NCBI RefSeq assembly: GCF_900232105.1
Contig: NZ_LT934425.1
Span: 240,001-272,000, forward strand
Length of the DNA stretch: 32,000 bases
Source of the DNA: Candidatus Kuenenia stuttgartensis
GTDB lineage: Bacteria; Planctomycetota; Brocadiia; Brocadiales; Brocadiaceae
Direction: 5' to 3'
Both the position numbers and the translations under genes were made by a program. This document shows, one piece after another, positions 838 to 32,000 of this stretch (position 1 is its first letter; each line of letters begins with the position of its first letter). The notes under the pieces were generated by a model. The model searched no databases, was not told the DNA's origin, and saw only the letters and a program-made list of their open reading frames with translations.

Positions 838-3401
838 TATAGCCAAACAAATCAAGTTTTGGAAATTCAGGATAACGCAGCATGTAATACACACCCCGTC
901 TGCTCCGCTACCACCCCTCTTTTTATAGGAGAAAGCCGGAAGTCCCCTCTAAAAAGCTAATCTTTACCCACAAATTTCAAGAGCACCGTAGTTGTACGGC
1001 CAATTGAGCTGAAGGCTAAGTGGTGTAAAGTTCGTAAGCAACTTCAATATCAGCCAAACGTGACATGCCTCGCCAAAGTACTTCACTTCCGGGATGGCCA
1101 TCACCACGGCGACCCAGATGACCGCCAAGTTTACCTAAAAGCCGCACGGCATCATTGAGGCTTGGAGGTAAATCAGGAGGCTCCTTGACCTTGTTCGCAA
1201 AAGTTGTCAATGCTTTCCATTCAGAATCGCTGAAGTAGACAGTACAAGGGACATCAGGTGTTTCTTGTCCTAAAGTAGTCAGGTAATGGATACGCCAAGC
1301 TATAATCATATCAATGGCCAAAGCGTTGCACAGACGACGGGCACTCTCCAACTGCCGGGACTCGACACGACAACCGCTCTTGATAATACGATGATAACAC
1401 TCAATACCCCATCGGCGAGCATACCATTCCAAACGTTCGTAAGCATCTTTTTCATGCTTAACCGCAACTGTAGTTAACAGCATCCATTCTAACCCATCAA
1501 TTCCGATAGGCGGATTGACTTCCTGCGCCAGCACCGCCCACACCCTGACCGCAGGCATATTCTTTTTTAGCATAGGTGGGCGTAGCGTAACAGGCATCGT
1601 TCGTACCATAAGTATTGCCTGACGTGCGGAGCGTTTCTCACTCGGAGGTATCAATATTTCGCGGGTACCTATAACCGGTTGCTGTTCCAGTTTAGTCCAC
1701 AAAAACTCGCATGATTCTTTATCATCAACAACCGTTCTATTGCGCGAACGTTCTGCACGGATCAGCAACTGAGCGCCATCAGGCGTATTATACTGCTCAG
1801 CGAATACCTCGTGAATATCGGCCTCACGATCTGCCACAACCACCAGCAAAGATTTGTTTCGACAGCGTTTCTGTACTTGCGATACTGCATGGTAACTCTC
1901 CACCCATTTCCAGCTTTCCTTCTCTTCGATAGGCTTCTTGTGTCGTTCATGTTTGCTGCCTATTCCGTCCCGCGCCCAGCATTGCACATTCAGAAGTCCC
2001 AAGGGTGTACCACTTTCAGTAAACGCCATCGTATCATGCACCATCAGTCCACGAACTTTTTCACTCTTAGTACCTATCGGCCCTAACCCCTGCGTATTCG
2101 GATGTGTGCTATAATTCAGAGTCGTAGTATCTTGCGCTACCAAAACCAAACTATTCTCCTTCACACGCTCTTCCGTGGCCTCATAATGAGCTTGCAATAT
2201 CGCCTTCCAATCTACATTCTCATTGTCAAGGAATCGGTATGCAGCCTTAGTCGCACTGACTGAGCCGCACGCCTGCGGAATGTTTGCCAAAGGTTTGTCA
2301 TAAAACATACCTGTCATTTCTAAAAGTCTTGAGGTCAATCGTGCATCGCCCAATTTTGTTCCTCCAAGTTCCGCTTCTATCCAATCCCGAGGCTCTTTTT
2401 GTGCCACTCTTTGGCGAACATGTACTTTGCCATCGGCACAACAACACAACACCGCCTGCCATTTCTTTTGCAACGGCATAACATAAACGTCTTTGACCGT
2501 TGCACCTGTTCCTTTTCGTCCTCGACCTTCCGTGCCTCCAACATACTTCCAGTTAGCTGCCCGATAACAGCTTCCGGAAAACCGTCCTCGTTCCACATAG
2601 GTTTCTAAAAGTACAGGACGATATTTATACACTCTTTCCCAATCATCTACCAAACGTGTTTGGCATTTTGCCAATACATGCGATGCCAAACATTTTACTC
2701 TTACCGTAGGCGCTATTAAATACCGACTGTTATTGATAACAAACGTATGATTCCGCTTACGTGCTTCCTCCGTCCATCCTATCCACTCGTCGCGACTTTC
2801 CACCCGTCTGGCACAGGCACTATAACTTAGCCCTCCTATCCATCCGTAATGTTCACTGCGTACAAGATACCGAAGTTGCGCCCCGCATAGGGGCCCACTT
2901 CCAAGATAATGATGCGCTTCTAACATGCTACGCCAAAGTTTCGAATGGAATCTCGTTGTAACCCGTATAATCTCTACGTCACCCAACTCCGCTAGCTCGC
3001 ATGACACTTCCGCAATCGGAGGCGCCTCCGCAGGTTTATTGACTTTTTGAAATGCATAATGCTTGTTCACCTTTGGAAGATTGATCTCTTTACGACGATC
3101 CAATTCCAATAACGCCTTGCGACAACTCATCTCTTGCAAACGGCCCGCTTGATTCCTCCAGTCCATCCATTCGCATACCAGACGCGACAGTTTACGACGC
3201 GATAGACAGGGTTCCTTTTGGATAGTTTCTGATAAACGCTTTATTACATCATCTGAAAATATTCGACCTCCTACTCTAAGCATGTACACAGTGTAACATA
3301 CGGTTAACACGGTGTCCAGCAAAAAATATGGGTCATCCCCAGCTAAAAAGAGGGGATTTAGGGGTGTGTAAATATTCTAAAATCATATTTGTTTGACTAT
3401 A
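838..3401 (-). mobile_element. Tn5-like (IS4 family) insertion sequence with long imperfect subterminal inverted repeats; ends approximate
   Basis: One long transposase ORF is flanked by inverted repeats with indels. Left 838-925 reads TATAGCCAAACAAAT...TACACACCCC...CCCCTCTTTTTA. The reverse complement of right 3344-3401 reads TATAGTCAAACAAAT...TACACACCCC...CCCCTCTTTTTA. No target-site duplication was found. Confidence 0.55.
1016..3283 (-). CDS. Fusion protein: DUF4338 (DruA-like) N-terminal domain + Tn5-like DDE transposase
   Basis: The N-terminal half (GRIFSDDVIKRL...MSCRKALLELDRR...GAQLRYLVRSEHYGWIGGLSYSACARRVESRDEWIGW...RVYKYRPVLLETYV...GSCYRAANWKYVG.TEGRGR) matches the DUF4338 pattern. 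The C-terminal half has the Tn5 N-domain (ELGGTKLGDARLTSRL...KAAYRFLDNENV) and the DDE triad contexts VAQDTTTLNY, VVADREADI and YARRWGIECYHRIIKSGCRVE. The ATG at 3283 is preferred over the TTG at 3322 by comparison with typical DUF4338 N-termini. Confidence 0.85.
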   Translation of the reverse strand: MLRVGGRIFSDDVIKRLSETIQKEPCLSRRKLSRLVCEWMDWRNQAGRLQEMSCRKALLELDRRKEINLPKVNKHYAFQKVNKPAEAPPIAEVSCELAELGDVEIIRVTTRFHSKLWRSMLEAHHYLGSGPLCGAQLRYLVRSEHYGWIGGLSYSACARRVESRDEWIGWTEEARKRNHTFVINNSRYLIAPTVRVKCLASHVLAKCQTRLVDDWERVYKYRPVLLETYVERGRFSGSCYRAANWKYVGGTEGRGRKGTGATVKDVYVMPLQKKWQAVLCCCADGKVHVRQRVAQKEPRDWIEAELGGTKLGDARLTSRLLEMTGMFYDKPLANIPQACGSVSATKAAYRFLDNENVDWKAILQAHYEATEERVKENSLVLVAQDTTTLNYSTHPNTQGLGPIGTKSEKVRGLMVHDTMAFTESGTPLGLLNVQCWARDGIGSKHERHKKPIEEKESWKWVESYHAVSQVQKRCRNKSLLVVVADREADIHEVFAEQYNTPDGAQLLIRAERSRNRTVVDDKESCEFLWTKLEQQPVIGTREILIPPSEKRSARQAILMVRTMPVTLRPPMLKKNMPAVRVWAVLAQEVNPPIGIDGLEWMLLTTVAVKHEKDAYERLEWYARRWGIECYHRIIKSGCRVESRQLESARRLCNALAIDMIIAWRIHYLTTLGQETPDVPCTVYFSDSEWKALTTFANKVKEPPDLPPSLNDAVRLLGKLGGHLGRRGDGHPGSEVLWRGMSRLADIEVAYELYTT

Positions 3402-27516: not shown

Positions 27517-28439
27517 TCTGTTGCGCCCAATACTGCTGCCAAAATAGCCTTTCGCACCGGCACGCCATTGCGCACCTGGTCAAAATATACCGCATAATTT
27601 GTCCCATCAAGACTTTCGTCCATCTCATCCACACGCGGTAAAGGATGCATTATCTTTAAATCGTCCTTTACCCCCAATCCCTCAATCATGGGTTTGCTCA
27701 ACCTGTAAATCCCACGTACCTTTTCAAACTCTATTGGGTCGGCAAAACGCTCTTCCTGGATCCGCGTGCAATAAATCACATCAAGTTGTTTCCCGATACC
27801 TTGCAGGGATTCTGCCTCATGGCATGTTACGCGCCTTTTCTTCAGTTCTTCCATACAATCATTCGGCATTCTTAAATTAGGTGGAGAGATAAAGTACATT
27901 TCTGCTCCGAAATAGGCAAGGGCATAGGCGAGAGAGTGTACCGTTCTGCCATATTTAAGGTCTCCTAAAAAGCCAATTTTTAGCCCCTCAAGAATGCCTT
28001 TTGTTTTTAGAATGGTGTAAAGATCGAGAAACGTTTGGGTTGGGTGCTGGTTGGAACCGTCACCGGCATTAATCACCGGCACATTAACAATATCTGCGGC
28101 AAGCTGTGCAGCTCCTTCAAGATAGTGGCGAAGAACAACAACGTCACAATATCCCTCAATTGTCTTTAACGAATCGCTGAAGGATTCGCCCTTAGCAATG
28201 GACGTGGCGCCAGACTCCGCAAACCCGATTACCATACCGCCGAGTCGTTTCATTGCGGCTTCAAAACTTAACCTGGTCCTTGTGGAAGGCTCAAAAAACA
28301 GCACTGACAGTACCTTCCCCTTCAGGATTTGGGAATAATCGGTTTGTTCCATTCTTTTCGTGACGTCAAGAATGTATAAAATCTCTTCTTTATTGAAATG
28401 GAGGATAGAAATAATATCTCTTTGTTTGAAACTGATCAT
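27513..28439 (-). CDS. pyrB: Aspartate carbamoyltransferase catalytic subunit
   Basis: FFEPSTRTRLSFE, LRHYLEG, the NAGDGSNQHPTQ and GDLKYGRTVHS blocks, and HPLPR are present. The ATG at 28439 (AGGAA 4 nt upstream) is preferred to the GTG at 28469. Confidence 0.93.
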   Translation of the reverse strand: MISFKQRDIISILHFNKEEILYILDVTKRMEQTDYSQILKGKVLSVLFFEPSTRTRLSFEAAMKRLGGMVIGFAESGATSIAKGESFSDSLKTIEGYCDVVVLRHYLEGAAQLAADIVNVPVINAGDGSNQHPTQTFLDLYTILKTKGILEGLKIGFLGDLKYGRTVHSLAYALAYFGAEMYFISPPNLRMPNDCMEELKKRRVTCHEAESLQGIGKQLDVIYCTRIQEERFADPIEFEKVRGIYRLSKPMIEGLGVKDDLKIMHPLPRVDEMDESLDGTNYAVYFDQVRNGVPVRKAILAAVLGATE

Positions 28440-28681
28440 GTGTTCCTGCGATTGATAGAGGAGTGGCACTGTTTAATATTTGAAAAGATATTATCAGACC
28501 AATTTCAACATTACAAGTATTAATTTCTAACACAGCTTAGCGGGTTTTTTGTCTTTTCTTGTTTATTCTTATATGCTATTGTGTAGCCTGTAAAATCAGG
28601 GGTTAGAAAGCATGAGCGTTATTGTTTGGTTTGTTTTGTTTTCGTTACATTTTATTTGAAGTACGACTGAGGTACGACTTT

Positions 28682-28876
28682 ATGAAAAAGCTTTTGTTCT
28701 TAATTCTTGTGTTTCTTGTTGCCGGATGCACTTCAACGGTGTCACAAACGGATCAACAGTATTACAACGTTTACGATGAACAGGGAAAGCGCAAAGGCTA
28801 CATAAAAGAGCGGGACGGACATTTTACCATTTACGATGAGAACTGGCAGCGTAAGGGGTATCTGGAGCGCAAATAG
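28682..28876 (+). CDS. Small lipoprotein with internal duplicated motif
   Basis: The lipobox is MKKLLFLILVFLVAGC. The mature part repeats YDEQGKRKGYIKER / YDENWQRKGYLERK. Confidence 0.65.
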   Translation: MKKLLFLILVFLVAGCTSTVSQTDQQYYNVYDEQGKRKGYIKERDGHFTIYDENWQRKGYLERK

Positions 28877-28905
28877 TGATAATGATTAAGGGCTAGGGAT
28901 GATCA

Positions 28906-28976
28906 CCCGAAAAGCCGCAATCCTGAGCGGGTGCCCTTTATCTACTTTCAGGGGTTATTCACAGGAGGATAACGTT
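28906..28976 (+). promoter_or_regulatory. Conserved ~70-nt 5' leader, copy A (upstream of the TPR gene)
   Basis: CCCGAAAAGCCGCAATCCTGAGCGGGTGCCCTTTATCTACTTTCAGGGGTTATTCACAGGAGGATAACGTT-ATG is about 90% identical to 30054-30121. Similarity starts and stops exactly at the leader. It contains the hairpin (G)CCGC-AATCCTGA-GCGG, a CCCT...AGGG pair and an AGGAGG SD. Confidence 0.6.
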
Positions 28977-29849
28977 ATGGCTGAAACACCAAGTAAGCTG
29001 GATTTTATCAAGGTCTATGACTGGTTAGTCTGTAACATCGACAAGGAGGGATTAATGAGAGAAAACGAACGCATAGATATGGCAGCAACAGAGGCTTATA
29101 AACCACTACCAGGTGACCTAAAAAGGGTAGGGGAGTGGCGGCACGTAAGGAAAGAAGGGGCAATTGCGACATGGGCAAGAATCTTACGTCTTAGTTATTT
29201 CGCCTTGGCCATCGCGATATTCATTGGCAATGCCTATGCCGGGTCAGGTGAGAATATGGCCGAAATAGATACATGCAAACAAGCCGTAATAGCTAAACCC
29301 GATGATCCGGAAGCTCATTTTAAGCTTGGCAATGCCTATGCCAAGTCAGGCATGTATACGGAGGCAATAGAGGCTTACAAACAGGCGATAAGGATTGAAC
29401 CTGATTATGCAGATGCTCATTGTAAGCTTGGTGCTGTCTATGCCAAGTCAGGCATGTATACGGAGGCAATAGAGGCTTTTAAACAGGCGATAAGGATTAA
29501 ACCTGATTATGTAGGCGCTCATCTTGGTCTTGGCATTTCCTATGACGAGTCAGGCATGCATCAGGAAGCAATAGCGGCTTACAAACAGGCTATAAGGATT
29601 GAACCTGATTTTGCAGGCGCTCATAATAATCTTGGTGCTGCCTATGCCGAGTCAGGCATGTATAGGGAAGCAATAGAGGCTTTTATACAGGCTATAAGGA
29701 TTAAACCTGATGATGTAGGCGCTCATTTTGGTCTTGGTGCTGCCTGTTTGATATTAAACGAGAGAGGCTCTGCCCTAGAACAATATAAGATACTCAAAGA
29801 CCTTGACGCTGAAGCGGCCAATAAGTTGTTCGATCTGATTTATAAATAG
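28977..29849 (+). CDS. Membrane-anchored TPR-repeat protein
   Basis: An AGGAGG SD lies 8 nt upstream of the ATG at 28977. The TM helix is LRLSYFALAIAIFIGNAYAG. Five 34-aa TPR units follow, of the type AHxxLGxAYAxSGMYxEAIEAxKQAIRIxPDxxx. Confidence 0.85.
   Translation: MAETPSKLDFIKVYDWLVCNIDKEGLMRENERIDMAATEAYKPLPGDLKRVGEWRHVRKEGAIATWARILRLSYFALAIAIFIGNAYAGSGENMAEIDTCKQAVIAKPDDPEAHFKLGNAYAKSGMYTEAIEAYKQAIRIEPDYADAHCKLGAVYAKSGMYTEAIEAFKQAIRIKPDYVGAHLGLGISYDESGMHQEAIAAYKQAIRIEPDFAGAHNNLGAAYAESGMYREAIEAFIQAIRIKPDDVGAHFGLGAACLILNERGSALEQYKILKDLDAEAANKLFDLIYK
29313..29720 (+). repeat. Four tandem 102-bp coding repeats (TPR units) inside the TPR gene
   Basis: Units start with GCTCAT at 29313, 29415, 29517 and 29619. 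Long stretches are identical between units, for example AGTCAGGCATGTATACGGAGGCAATAGAGGCTT in units 1 and 2. Degenerate copies flank them at 29226-29312 and 29721-29790. Confidence 0.9.
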
Positions 29850-29885
29850 AAAAACCCCCATAGGGGAGAAGGAGAGAGGTCAGGC

Positions 29886-29975
29886 ATGGTTAGAACAATC
29901 AGAGCCAGATTTTCGCATGGCGTAATTGAACCTTTGGAAAAAGTAGACCGGAAAGAGACTCCTTTTTTGAGGTAG
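29886..29975 (+). pseudogene. Truncated DUF104 (AF2212-like) antitoxin remnant
   Basis: MVRTIRARFSHGVIEPLEKVDRKE matches the N-terminal signature of DUF104 antitoxins (M..I.A.Y.NGV..PLE.VDL.EG). The ORF stops after 29 codons and no PIN toxin gene follows. A GGAGAGAGG SD lies upstream. Confidence 0.55.
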
Positions 29976-30053
29976 GGGGTATGCATGGGACTTCAGTTTG
30001 CAGTCAAATAATTGTATCCCCTATCTAACTTTTTTTGCATAAAGGTTGACGAA

Positions 30054-30121
30054 CCGAAAGCCGCAATCCTGAGCGGCGGCCCTTTATCCACTTTCAGGGT
30101 TATTTACAGGAGGATAACGAT
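30054..30121 (+). promoter_or_regulatory. Conserved ~70-nt 5' leader, copy B (upstream of the wHTH gene)
   Basis: CCGAAAGCCGCAATCCTGAGCGGCGGCCCTTTATCCACTTTCAGGGTTATTTACAGGAGGATAACGAT-ATG. See copy A. TTATCC (within 30084-30090) is complementary to GGATAA, which overlaps the 3' side of the SD. Confidence 0.6.
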
Positions 30122-30943
30122 ATGCGGGAAAATCTCAGCGATTCAGCAGCAAATCTTAAGAATATATTCGAAGAGTATTACTACTTAATTATTAATACCG
30201 GCAGTGATAGCCATTTTCTTACTAAAGACAAATACAACGAAATAATGGATAGGTGTGTGAGAACTTTATCCAAAAGAGGTCTTTTGTTGGTTATGGCTGG
30301 TAATAAATTAATCATTTCATTTGAAGATGTGAAAGATTTGGACAGGGAATTATTTAAGACGTGGCCATACTATAGTTACAAAGAATTGGATGAAATGGGA
30401 CTCTGTAAAATCAATGGGAACGGGCAAAAGACGTATCCAAGCTGGATGATCAACAGAGAGGCAAAACTTAAGGAATATTTTCAAGATCAATATCTGGATT
30501 GTTTAGAAAAAATTGAGAACCGCAAATTAGGGGCGAGCACACCGATGCAAATACCCAGAGATACGAAATGCCAAGATTTGGTTAGCAAGCCAGAGAAAGA
30601 GCAGGCGAGCATTGATAAACTTTTCTATGATGATCATAAGCGTATTCTGTTTTTTGATAATGAAACACAGTACAAACTGACAAAAAAAGAACAGACATTG
30701 GTCGAATGTTTAAGAAGCGATGAACAGGATGTAGAAGACATATGCGAAAAAATTTGGGAGGATAGGGAAGCCAGGGGCAAATTTGACGCACTTAAGTCAA
30801 AATTAAACGGAAAGATTAAGACACAATTTGGTGTTAAGCTAATCAGAAACACGGAAAAGGGAAGCGGTAAATACTGTTTTGAAATAAAGATAACTAATAA
30901 GAAATTCAAAAAGCAAGATGAAAGTAAGATGCCGGTAAGATAG
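30122..30943 (+). CDS. Protein with unknown N-terminal domain and C-terminal OmpR/PhoB-type winged-helix (trans_reg_C-like) DNA-binding domain
   Basis: The C-terminal YKLTKKEQTLVECLRSDEQDVEDICEKIWEDREARGKFDALKSKLNGKIKTQFGVKLIRNTEKGSGKYCF follows the LT..E..LL..L......V.....I........VD..I.RLR.KL.......I.T..G.GY pattern. The N-terminal ~180 aa are unrecognised. A strong SD lies in the conserved leader. Confidence 0.7.
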   Translation: MRENLSDSAANLKNIFEEYYYLIINTGSDSHFLTKDKYNEIMDRCVRTLSKRGLLLVMAGNKLIISFEDVKDLDRELFKTWPYYSYKELDEMGLCKINGNGQKTYPSWMINREAKLKEYFQDQYLDCLEKIENRKLGASTPMQIPRDTKCQDLVSKPEKEQASIDKLFYDDHKRILFFDNETQYKLTKKEQTLVECLRSDEQDVEDICEKIWEDREARGKFDALKSKLNGKIKTQFGVKLIRNTEKGSGKYCFEIKITNKKFKKQDESKMPVR

Positions 30944-31029
30944 ATATGTTTTTGAATATACCTGCGAATTGTCTGTAAATTAAGGGGATTGAAGCCGATG
31001 TAAAAAAGTAAGATGAAAGTAAGATTTCA
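30913..31029 (+). repeat. Iteron-like 11-bp-phased heptamers G(C/T)AAGAT in two clusters
   Basis: GCAAGAT at 30913, then GTAAGAT at 30924, 30935, 31008 and 31019. Spacing within each cluster is exactly 11 bp. The 16-mer AAGATGAAAGTAAGAT occurs twice, at 30914-30929 and 31010-31025. Confidence 0.7.
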
Positions 31030-31045
31030 TTGGTTGTATAAAGAA

Positions 31046-31080
31046 GCCATGAGGTAAGCGTTTACCTTGTGGCTTTTTTT
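31046..31080 (+). terminator. Rho-independent terminator after the wHTH gene
   Basis: GCCATGAGGTAA-gcgt-TTACCTTGTGGC forms a 12-bp stem (two G-U pairs in RNA) followed by TTTTTTT (31074-31080). Confidence 0.8.
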
Positions 31081-31101
31081 GTTTTTACAGGAGGTATTTT
31101 T

Positions 31102-31275
31102 ATGAGAGACGAACCGGGTAAATTTTTCAATTTTCTGATGCCTTACAGCCAATATGAGGAATTGAGGGGTTTGGCGAGAAAAACGGATTTACCGATGGCT
31201 GAAATAATCCGTCAGGCTGTGCGGTCGGTGTTGGAGTCAGGCGGGCGGGTTAGGCTGAAAAAGCCATGCGCTTAA
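31102..31275 (+). CDS. Ribbon-helix-helix (CopG/Arc-like) protein
   Basis: An AGGAGG SD precedes the ATG at 31102. KFFNFLMPYSQYEELRGLARKTDLPMAEIIRQAVRSVLE has the beta-strand plus two-helix RHH pattern. It is paralogous to 31354-31572. Confidence 0.7.
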   Translation: MRDEPGKFFNFLMPYSQYEELRGLARKTDLPMAEIIRQAVRSVLESGGRVRLKKPCA

Positions 31276-31641: not shown

Positions 31642-32000
31642 ATGGATGATAAATCAACACTAGACTTTGCAATTTATTACACAGAAGAAAAGAATTTTTC
31701 AATCATACCCTTGATTGGCAAAATCCCTGATGCCAGCGTTTTGCCAAAAGAACCAAACGAAAAAGGCGAACCAAAACCAACATGGCGACCATATCAAAAG
31801 AGAAAGCCAACGCAGGATGAATTACAAAAATGGTTTGGCAATGGCAGTAAACGGAATATCGGCATTGTAACCGGCACTATTTCTGGCATTGCCGTTGTTG
31901 ATTTGGACGGCAGGGAGGCTATACAGCTTGCAAAAGATTTAGAACTACCGGATACACCAGTTGTAAAGACGGCAAGGGGATATCATTTATATTACCGCTA
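31642..32000 (+). CDS. Bifunctional DNA primase/polymerase (PrimPol, N-terminal domain); 3' end outside window
   Basis: The frame is open to the window edge. FSIIPLIGKIP...WRPYQKRKPTQDELQKWFGNGSKRNIGIVTGTISGIAVVDLDGREA...PDTPVVKTARGYHLYYR matches the Prim-Pol pattern (NIGI.TG..SG..V.D.D......P.T....T..G.H.Y.). Confidence 0.8.
   Translation, partial: MDDKSTLDFAIYYTEEKNFSIIPLIGKIPDASVLPKEPNEKGEPKPTWRPYQKRKPTQDELQKWFGNGSKRNIGIVTGTISGIAVVDLDGREAIQLAKDLELPDTPVVKTARGYHLYYR

Follow-up and report, generated by a model that had tools for sequence, protein, structure and literature searches.

The window analysed here, 32,000 nucleotides (nt) of the forward strand of Candidatus Kuenenia stuttgartensis (assembly GCF_900232105.1, contig NZ_LT934425.1, positions 240,001 to 272,000), contains a leader of about 70 nt that occurs twice, in front of a gene with TPR repeats and in front of a gene for a protein of 273 amino acids (aa). 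This leader is a catalogued RNA of mobile elements, int-alpA (Rfam RF02996), and is present in one intact and one damaged copy. A preliminary description of the DNA had noticed the repeat and read it either as a control element or as the mark of an inserted segment; the observation is confirmed, the interpretation is partly supported, and the locus adds a member to a known RNA family. At the level of the family, with both modules of this locus in the state described below, the leader is probably a cis-acting translational switch, as judged from sequence comparison.

Identity and anatomy of the leader

The segments 28909-28976 and 30054-30121 are about 90% identical, with five mismatches and two 1-nt indels (MAFFT and repeat search), and an ATG follows directly after each of them, at 28977 for copy 1 and at 30122 for copy 2. 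The preliminary description had given the same identity, the same indels, no spacing before the ATG and an abrupt end of the similarity on both sides, all of which the alignment bears out. Used as a BLAST query against the whole 4.4-Mb single-contig genome, copy 2 matched only itself (E 2.8e-29) and copy 1 (E 1.6e-19), the next match having an E value of 0.9. On the alignment identity and this restriction to two copies, the repeat is real, and is neither a chance similarity nor a dispersed genomic repeat.

Copy 1 (28886-28953) matched the int-alpA model over its full length with 37.2 bits (cmscan, E 1.5e-5), against a gathering score of 35.8 bits. Copy 2 (30040-30099) scored 22.9 bits, which is under the gathering score and insufficient if taken alone; its low score results from a 6-nt deletion that took out the conserved CUAG junction. 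The parts of the two copies, including the Shine-Dalgarno (SD) sequence, are as follows.

28886-28953, + strand: int-alpA RNA copy 1, with helix P1 (28886-28893 with 28933-28940), P2 (28896-28908), P3 (28915-28918 with 28927-28930) and a tail to R1
28919-28926, + strand: loop L3 of P3 in copy 1 (AAUCCUGA), an anti-SD-like word complementary to R1 and R2
28948-28953, + strand: R1 (UCAGGG), first putative target or decoy of L3, abutting hairpin P4
28954-28973, + strand: hairpin P4 of copy 1 (GUUAU-UCACAGGAGG-AUAAC), with the ATG 3 nt later
28962-28966 and 28963-28968, + strand: R2 (CAGGA) and the SD sequence AGGAGG, respectively, within the P4 loop of copy 1
30040-30121, + strand: int-alpA RNA copy 2, degenerate, with a P1a remnant UAAAGG (30040-30045), P2 (30044-30055) and P3 (30060-30064 with 30073-30077)
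30065-30072, 30094-30099, 30099-30118 and 30108-30113, + strand: L3, R1, hairpin P4 and SD sequence of copy 2, respectively

In copy 1, P1 (UUAAGGGC/GCCCUUUA) closes a three-way junction with the hairpins P2 and P3. None of the conserved junction bases, (C)UA(G), GAAAA and CU(G), is missing, and the minimum-free-energy fold contains the three-way junction. The preliminary description was right about the repeated part, but in copy 1 the outer stem P1 (TTAAGGGC...GCCCTTTA) and hairpin P2 fall outside the repeat, which places the start of the functional unit at 28886, some 20 nt before it. The (G)CCGC-AATCCTGA-GCGG hairpin and the AGGAGG sequence that it had recognised are found in both copies, and this hairpin is P3. 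The predicted L3:R1 duplex of copy 1 has 6 bp (-7.9 kcal/mol) and the L3:R2 duplex 5 bp (-7.2 kcal/mol); hairpin P4 alone has fold z-scores of -4.2 in copy 1 and -3.8 in copy 2.

The deletion in copy 2 (GCUAGG, relative to the related loci L013, L008 and L010) removes J12. Without these nucleotides P1 and P2 compete for the same GG and cannot both form, so that copy 2 lacks the junction feature of the family. P3, its loop, R1, hairpin P4, R2 and the SD sequence are intact in both copies, which carry the same loop and the same R1 and R2 words. The 3' halves of the two copies are closer to each other than to any relative, while the 5' halves belong to different subtypes.

Copy 1 agrees with the Rfam entry in the three-way junction, the junction bases (CUAG, GAAAAG) and a tail ending in AGGG, which corresponds to R1, and shares with it a mobile-element setting with an integrase. 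It differs in that the Rfam model ends at R1, whereas the conserved unit continues through hairpin P4, R2 with the SD sequence and the start codon; moreover, the host is an anammox planctomycete, copy 2 is under threshold from its deletion, and no alpA was found in the island. None of the island open reading frames (ORFs) scanned matched the AlpA family, the small ones being RHH proteins or unassigned. The gene alpA is a naming association that lies outside the RNA model, and many relatives are also without alpA directly downstream. RF02996 originates in a survey of 224 candidate structured RNAs (PMC5737381), and Rfam types it as 'Gene; sRNA'. In the searchable literature int-alpA appears only in Rfam-based lists, without a reported function, and the main text of that survey does not discuss it.

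Conservation and covariation of the structure

A covariance-model search and a covariation check, both suggested in the preliminary description, yielded copies in relatives and covarying helices. Copies in relatives of the same genus score 36-58 bits. Of 38 genomes from the same taxonomic family, 24 (10 of 12 genera) carry the RNA, as do 11 of 149 genomes drawn from the phylum as a whole. At least 120 more copies emerged from a pattern scan of public genomes; their hosts include Pseudomonadota, Planctomycetota, Nitrospirota, Chloroflexota, Bacillota, metagenome-assembled genomes of Bacteroidota, and others. The RNA is also present in P22-like and other temperate phages, between the genes for lysis and terminase and ahead of a DUF551 gene.

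From a set of 33 Planctomycetota copies, compiled together with their flanks, we annotated 28 manually. In the annotated copies, L3 is complementary to R1, which is located 4-10 pyrimidine-rich nt after P1; R1 abuts hairpin P4, the loop of P4 holds R2 fused to the SD sequence, and the start codon follows a few nt after P4. Over about 130 relatives from many phyla, the three-way junction with these downstream words is the conserved architecture. Pair counts were made on 26 Planctomycetota copies in an alignment that had been padded with N and brought manually into the register of the proposed structure, and hence leans towards it: P1 was paired in 85% of cases, P2 in 99% and P3 in 97%, and the 7-pair L3:R1 pseudoknot in 89.5%. 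Changes on both sides were seen at all seven pseudoknot pairs, at every pair of P1 and P3, and at four of the five pairs of P2. The covariation score was 0.599 as against 0.170 for shuffled alignments, none of 500 shuffles reaching the observed value, and slid registers gave at most 0.123.

A control that is independent of registration used 107 unique copies from many phyla, with loops swapped between sequences that have no common 4-mer. At least five Watson-Crick pairs between L3 and R1 were possible for 83% of the copies with their own loop and for 3.5% with a swapped one; for L3 and R2 the values were 71% and 9.6%. These 107 copies carry 62 distinct loop words. The pairings of the preliminary description did not stand up to a comparison with swapped sequences: CCCT:AGGG gave on average 2.70 pairs with the own and 2.77 with the swapped partner, TTATCC:GGATAA 3.30 and 3.34, and neither is conserved. 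The conserved pairings are instead P1, the 5' arm of which it had missed, the P3 loop with R1, the P3 loop with R2, and hairpin P4.

Hairpin P4 is present in 91 of 97 relatives, with a mean z-score of -1.8, and holds R2 inside its loop in 83 of these 91; it starts 0-2 nt after R1 in 80 of the 91 and ends 0-5 nt before the start codon. Over 121 copies, P1 comprises 833 Watson-Crick, 43 G-U, 25 A-C and 67 other oppositions, and all four Watson-Crick types occur. An ORF with an SD sequence follows in 107 of the 121 copies, starting a median of 40 nt after P3. Within the genus, a sister island at the same attachment (att) site in genome G002 has a 5' half like that of copy 1, but its loop reads ACUCCAA and both R1 and R2 read UUGGAG, which, judged on these words, is a triple covariation with a complete switch of the word at one att site.

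Several related loci deserve mention in their own right. At G001:C24 (L013:1337-1431), a DUF3800-V RNA (RF02964, 70 bits) and an int-alpA copy of 55.6 bits occupy opposite strands, the former 45 nt upstream of the latter, so that two motifs of the same 2017 survey stand back to back. Some Planctomycetota have int-alpA arrays: in G128:C100, three copies are spaced at intervals of about 2.4 kb, each ahead of a different gene, and L090 contains two. At L028/L031 (G128:C35:150-337), two copies stand 120 nt apart without an ORF, one of them followed by three AAAACAGG repeats that match its loop. In the sister island L055 (G002:C39), positions 3016-3091 show a weak match to the c-di-GMP-I-UAU riboswitch (31 bits, gathering score 65.9), which is probably due to chance.

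Proposed mechanism

By complementarity and covariation, L3 can pair with R1 or with R2, never with both. The L3:R1 helix would form a pseudoknot stacked on hairpin P4, and the L3:R2 helix would mask the SD sequence; the balance between R1 and R2 would set the frequency with which ribosomes start on the downstream gene. This balance could be shifted by a ligand, a protein, a trans-acting RNA, or folding kinetics alone. The mean helix length is 6.05 for R1 and 5.36 for R2 in the hand-annotated set, and 5.24 and 4.92 Watson-Crick pairs, respectively, in the broad set; since transcription reaches R1 before R2 and the R1 helix has the greater mean length, L3:R1 should form by default. The invariant junction nucleotides suggest recognition of a ligand, a protein or a tertiary contact. 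We infer that these pairings regulate translation, and likewise the direction in which they do so. The cis-acting translational control proposed in the preliminary description is supported at the family level, where the leader is a structured RNA of Rfam, stands at a fixed distance ahead of an ORF in 107 of 121 copies and has a loop that covaries with the SD-fused word, but not in the particular pairings that it had named.

Several results weigh against this switch. Directly ahead of the two copies, a sigma-70 consensus scan found no promoter. For the leaders as a whole, the thermodynamic z-scores (-0.42 and -0.11) do not stand out, so that the case rests on the comparison with relatives, of which the 26-copy alignment leans towards the structure as stated above. 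In P1, the excess of G-U over A-C oppositions (43 vs. 25) gives a modest lean to the RNA strand only; for the pairing of the loop words with R1 or R2, the counts of G-U and A-C next to the helices are 52 vs. 69 and those within the helices 7 vs. 5, which does not separate RNA pairing from a DNA repeat. Lastly, both modules of the present locus are damaged, and neither copy may therefore do its original job.

Integrative element and mosaic history of the locus

Both int-alpA copies are carried by a 10.2-kb insertion between pyrBI and hom, which extends from 28507 to the end of the window at 32000 and on to position 278713 of the contig (G000:C1:278713). It is bordered by a perfect 19-nt direct repeat, the right copy of which lies at G000:C1:278695-278713. 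In two empty sites (G003:C64 and G001:C21), both flanks are joined through one copy of the 19-nt word, and mosaic sister islands occupy the same site in two other genomes of the genus. A perfect 23-nt repeat inside the island was also considered as the att core and was rejected in favour of the 19-mer after the empty sites had been aligned. Its second copy is found 3 nt past the stop codon of the tyrosine integrase and 78 nt from the right core; from their position, the 23-nt repeats are candidate arm-type integrase sites. The features of the island within the window, apart from the RNAs, are listed below.

28507-28525, unstranded: left copy of the att core (AACATTACAAGTATTAATT)
28659-28681, unstranded: 23-nt perfect repeat AAGTACGACTGAGGTACGACTTT, 133 nt from the left core
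28682-28876, + strand: 64-aa lipoprotein-like ORF (MKKLLFLILVFLVAGC...), just upstream of copy 1, with a weak lipoprotein match in NCBIfam
28977-29042, + strand: 66-nt stub (MAETPSKLDFIKVYDWLVCNID) left of the type-B regulator-like gene that once followed copy 1, fused in frame to the TPR fragment
29043-29947, + strand: transplanted 905-bp fragment with the TPR gene (own SD sequence AAGGAGGG, start ATG at 29055) and the truncated 5' part of an AF2212-like antitoxin ORF, according to Pfam TPR and AF2212-like matches
29948-30039, + strand: Region U, conserved upstream of the RNA in a single-copy relative, a possible promoter region
30122-30943, + strand: 273-aa orphan gene behind copy 2, with a type-A N-domain and the C-domain common to type B
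30913-31029, + strand: five GTAAGAT heptamer repeats in 11-nt phasing, straddling the end of the 273-aa gene, kept in L190
31040-31079, + strand: strong terminator-like hairpin with an 18-bp stem after the 273-aa gene (terminator scan), kept in L190

The tyrosine integrase is located at the right end (G000:C1:277364-278590), and the element further encodes a Prim-Pol protein, an RHH protein, an HTH protein and a Dam methylase. Its helicase matches the P4-family primase model TIGR01613 with an E value of 2e-25, under the curated cut-off. Instead of one primase gene there are two ORFs, one for a 163-aa Prim-Pol protein and one for a 628-aa PriCT/D5_N/P4-family helicase, which overlap by 16 nt in different frames (L015:5643-8005, G000:C1:271642-274004, in the window from 31642), while the sister island of G002 has a single 722-aa ORF in their place; the split may reflect a frameshift or decay of the island. 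The region of the 64-aa ORF has 87% identical DNA in G002:C13.

The history of the locus follows from a comparison with related genomes, as the preliminary description had recommended. Relatives with an island at the same site have a single RNA (G002:C39, 39.3 bits; L190 of GCA_002632395.1, 42.3 bits and then an intact 268-aa gene). The 66-nt stub matches the N-terminus of the type-B proteins P0004 and P0005, and the stub region shares 91% identity with positions 4911-5070 of L190, which retains an intact gene. A stand-alone locus in G002 (G002:C8:91917-92925), with an upstream region of its own and without an int-alpA RNA, shares 95% identity with the 905-bp fragment; in the present genome the fragment occurs only here and has lost its native upstream region. 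Downstream of it, 29948-30132 is 83% identical to L190 4820-5011 (upstream region and RNA), and 30578-31230 is 88% identical to L190 and covers the common C-domain, the GTAAGAT repeats and the RHH gene.

By these alignments, the locus consists of two related modules, each headed by an int-alpA RNA: module 1 has an intact RNA and a gene that was destroyed by the captured TPR fragment, and module 2 has an intact 273-aa gene behind an RNA without the CUAG junction. Such an arrangement would arise if related islands recombined, or if an island integrated in tandem and part of the DNA was then deleted. The view that the repeat marks an inserted segment is partly correct in that foreign DNA lies between the copies, although the edges of the fragment (29043 and 29947) do not coincide with the repeats; nor is the repeat a simple duplication scar, since the relatives identify its copies as the heads of two related gene modules. 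The co-regulation of both genes proposed in the preliminary description is open to doubt: the TPR gene came with the transplanted fragment and uses an SD sequence and start (29055) of its own, and the junction is missing from copy 2.

Such a history also raises the question of present activity. The repeat could be a recombination or decay scar, left when two related islands or modules became joined, with both leaders now out of function, and the gene behind copy 1, cut to 66 nt and fused to a foreign fragment, the missing junction of copy 2, the single-copy relatives at the same site (L190 and G002:C39) and the primase split into two overlapping ORFs are all in keeping with it. We nevertheless regard this as unlikely, given that P3, the loop, R1, hairpin P4, R2 and the SD sequence are intact in both copies, that the 273-aa ORF is open, and that the 3' halves resemble each other more closely than they do those of any relative. 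In any case, a scar would bear on the present activity of the leaders and not on the identity of the element.

Comparison with known systems

The CI RNA of P4 and the c4 RNA of P1/P7 (C4, RF01695) are antisense RNAs encoded in a leader, in which one word acts against two targets on the same transcript. In P1/P7 c4, one of the targets lies at a ribosome-binding site. Like these antisense RNAs, in which the word and its targets covary between heteroimmune elements, int-alpA is a small folded leader RNA that exposes a word complementary to two covarying targets on the same transcript, and the element described here, like that of P4 CI, has a P4-family primase. Unlike C4, both int-alpA targets lie downstream and only a few nt apart, and a terminator separates the gene of the leader from the replication genes. 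Sources on P4 CI are given as references 45-47 in the list of PMC4825925. The covariance model of C4 had no match at E up to 10 in 28400-30400 (cmscan), and the resemblance is functional only.

This likeness is the background to a second reading, in which the leader would be cut to release the three-way junction as a stable RNA acting in trans, in addition to the switch or in its place. Its loop word would address R1 and R2 on other transcripts, so that the intact but orphaned copy 1 would regulate the module behind the damaged copy 2. The Rfam type sRNA, the identical loop and R1/R2 words of the two copies, the P4-family primase of the element, and the ORF-less tandem copies of G128:C35, which share their word with ORF-bearing copies of the same genome, would all fit such an RNA, as would the 62 loop words with matching targets, a situation known from the heteroimmune systems P4/phiR73 and P1/P7. 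However, nearly every copy stands directly before its own ORF with its own matching targets, for which intramolecular pairing is sufficient; no terminator is evident after the junction, and the cmscan search for C4 was negative as stated above. The terminator after the 273-aa gene means, in addition, that the leader is not at the head of a replication operon, in contrast to P4. We therefore consider a trans-acting RNA improbable. Its broader form, in which int-alpA would be an address-carrying regulator that acts in trans as well as in cis, the loop word being a private and fast-diversifying translational 'immunity code' analogous to P4 CI and P1/P7 c4, and copy 1 taking over for the 273-aa gene what the junction-deleted copy 2 has lost, we judge to be rather improbable as well.

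Two further comparisons help to place the cis-acting switch. In the repZ/repA leaders of IncI-alpha and IncB plasmids (PK-repZ, PK-repBA), a pseudoknot switches translation on, and a distinct antisense RNA blocks the pseudoknot. There, as in int-alpA, the loop of an upstream hairpin pairs beside the ribosome-binding site of the controlled gene; int-alpA differs in having two alternative targets and no known antisense gene, and these models gave no cmscan match. With leaders of the riboswitch type it shares a three-way junction with invariant nucleotides, followed by mutually exclusive pairings that involve the SD sequence. It has no known ligand, and no common metabolite is suggested, because the downstream genes are unrelated to each other.

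Genes downstream of the RNA

The genes downstream of int-alpA are extremely diverse, with a median length of 242 aa, and most are without a Pfam family; the few recognised families include DUF6387, AP2, YhcG/DUF1016 nucleases, NUMOD3 and Rha with DUF559. Given this diversity, int-alpA is a generic leader for variable genes of mobile elements, tied neither to one protein family nor to alpA. The 273-aa protein behind copy 2 is a case in point: it has only five homologues among 5.8e9 proteins, and these show two types of N-domain and one common C-domain (seen in P0004/P0005). No Pfam or NCBIfam family was found for it, nor for the C-domain alone, and its AlphaFold2 model is of low confidence (predicted local distance difference test score, 45.6). 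The winged helix-turn-helix label given to this gene in the preliminary description is accordingly unconfirmed; the order of elements in residues 175-257 (a strand, four helices and two strands) is merely compatible with it. The GTAAGAT repeats may be binding sites of the 273-aa protein encoded just upstream.

Since several downstream genes encode DNA-binding domains (AP2, HTH_36, NUMOD3, ParB-HTH), the three covarying words, one inverted in P3 and two direct at R1 and R2, might themselves be double-stranded DNA operators for the protein encoded downstream, and would in that case follow the specificity of this protein instead of RNA pairing. Both the hypervariability of these genes and the G-U and A-C counts around the word helices, which have no RNA bias, would agree with operators. 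On the other hand, the words occupy fixed places in a covarying RNA fold (inside the loops of P3 and P4, and directly adjoining P4), the SD sequence to which R2 is fused has normal start-codon spacing, the orientation of the motif and its distance to the ORF are fixed, and the motif also precedes genes without a recognised DNA-binding domain (YhcG nucleases, DUF551). With the words locked in this way to RNA structural positions and to the SD sequence, DNA operators are very unlikely.

Even less credible is a folded single-stranded DNA recombination site, similar to the attC of integrons and marking cassette boundaries, as one might suppose from the arrays before different cargo genes in some Planctomycetota (G128:C100, L090), the nearby integrase and a survey method that also picks up single-stranded DNA structures (PMC5737381), in view of an att site that lies elsewhere (the 19-nt core), a single copy in most genomes, a coupling to the SD sequence and start codon that is unexpected for attC, fragment edges (29043, 29947) away from the motif, and integrase matches to integron-integrase models far below the cut-offs.

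Significance

For the annotation of this genome, the TPR gene and the 273-aa gene are to be placed inside a decaying P4-like integrative element of an anammox planctomycete. The locus offers a natural pair of variants, an intact junction with a destroyed gene and a deleted junction with an intact gene, and the triple complementarity of loop, decoy and SD sequence is a concrete hypothesis that can be tested by mutation. As int-alpA is widespread in phages, satellites and islands of many phyla, it may be a common translation gate on the first, hypervariable gene of many mobile elements.

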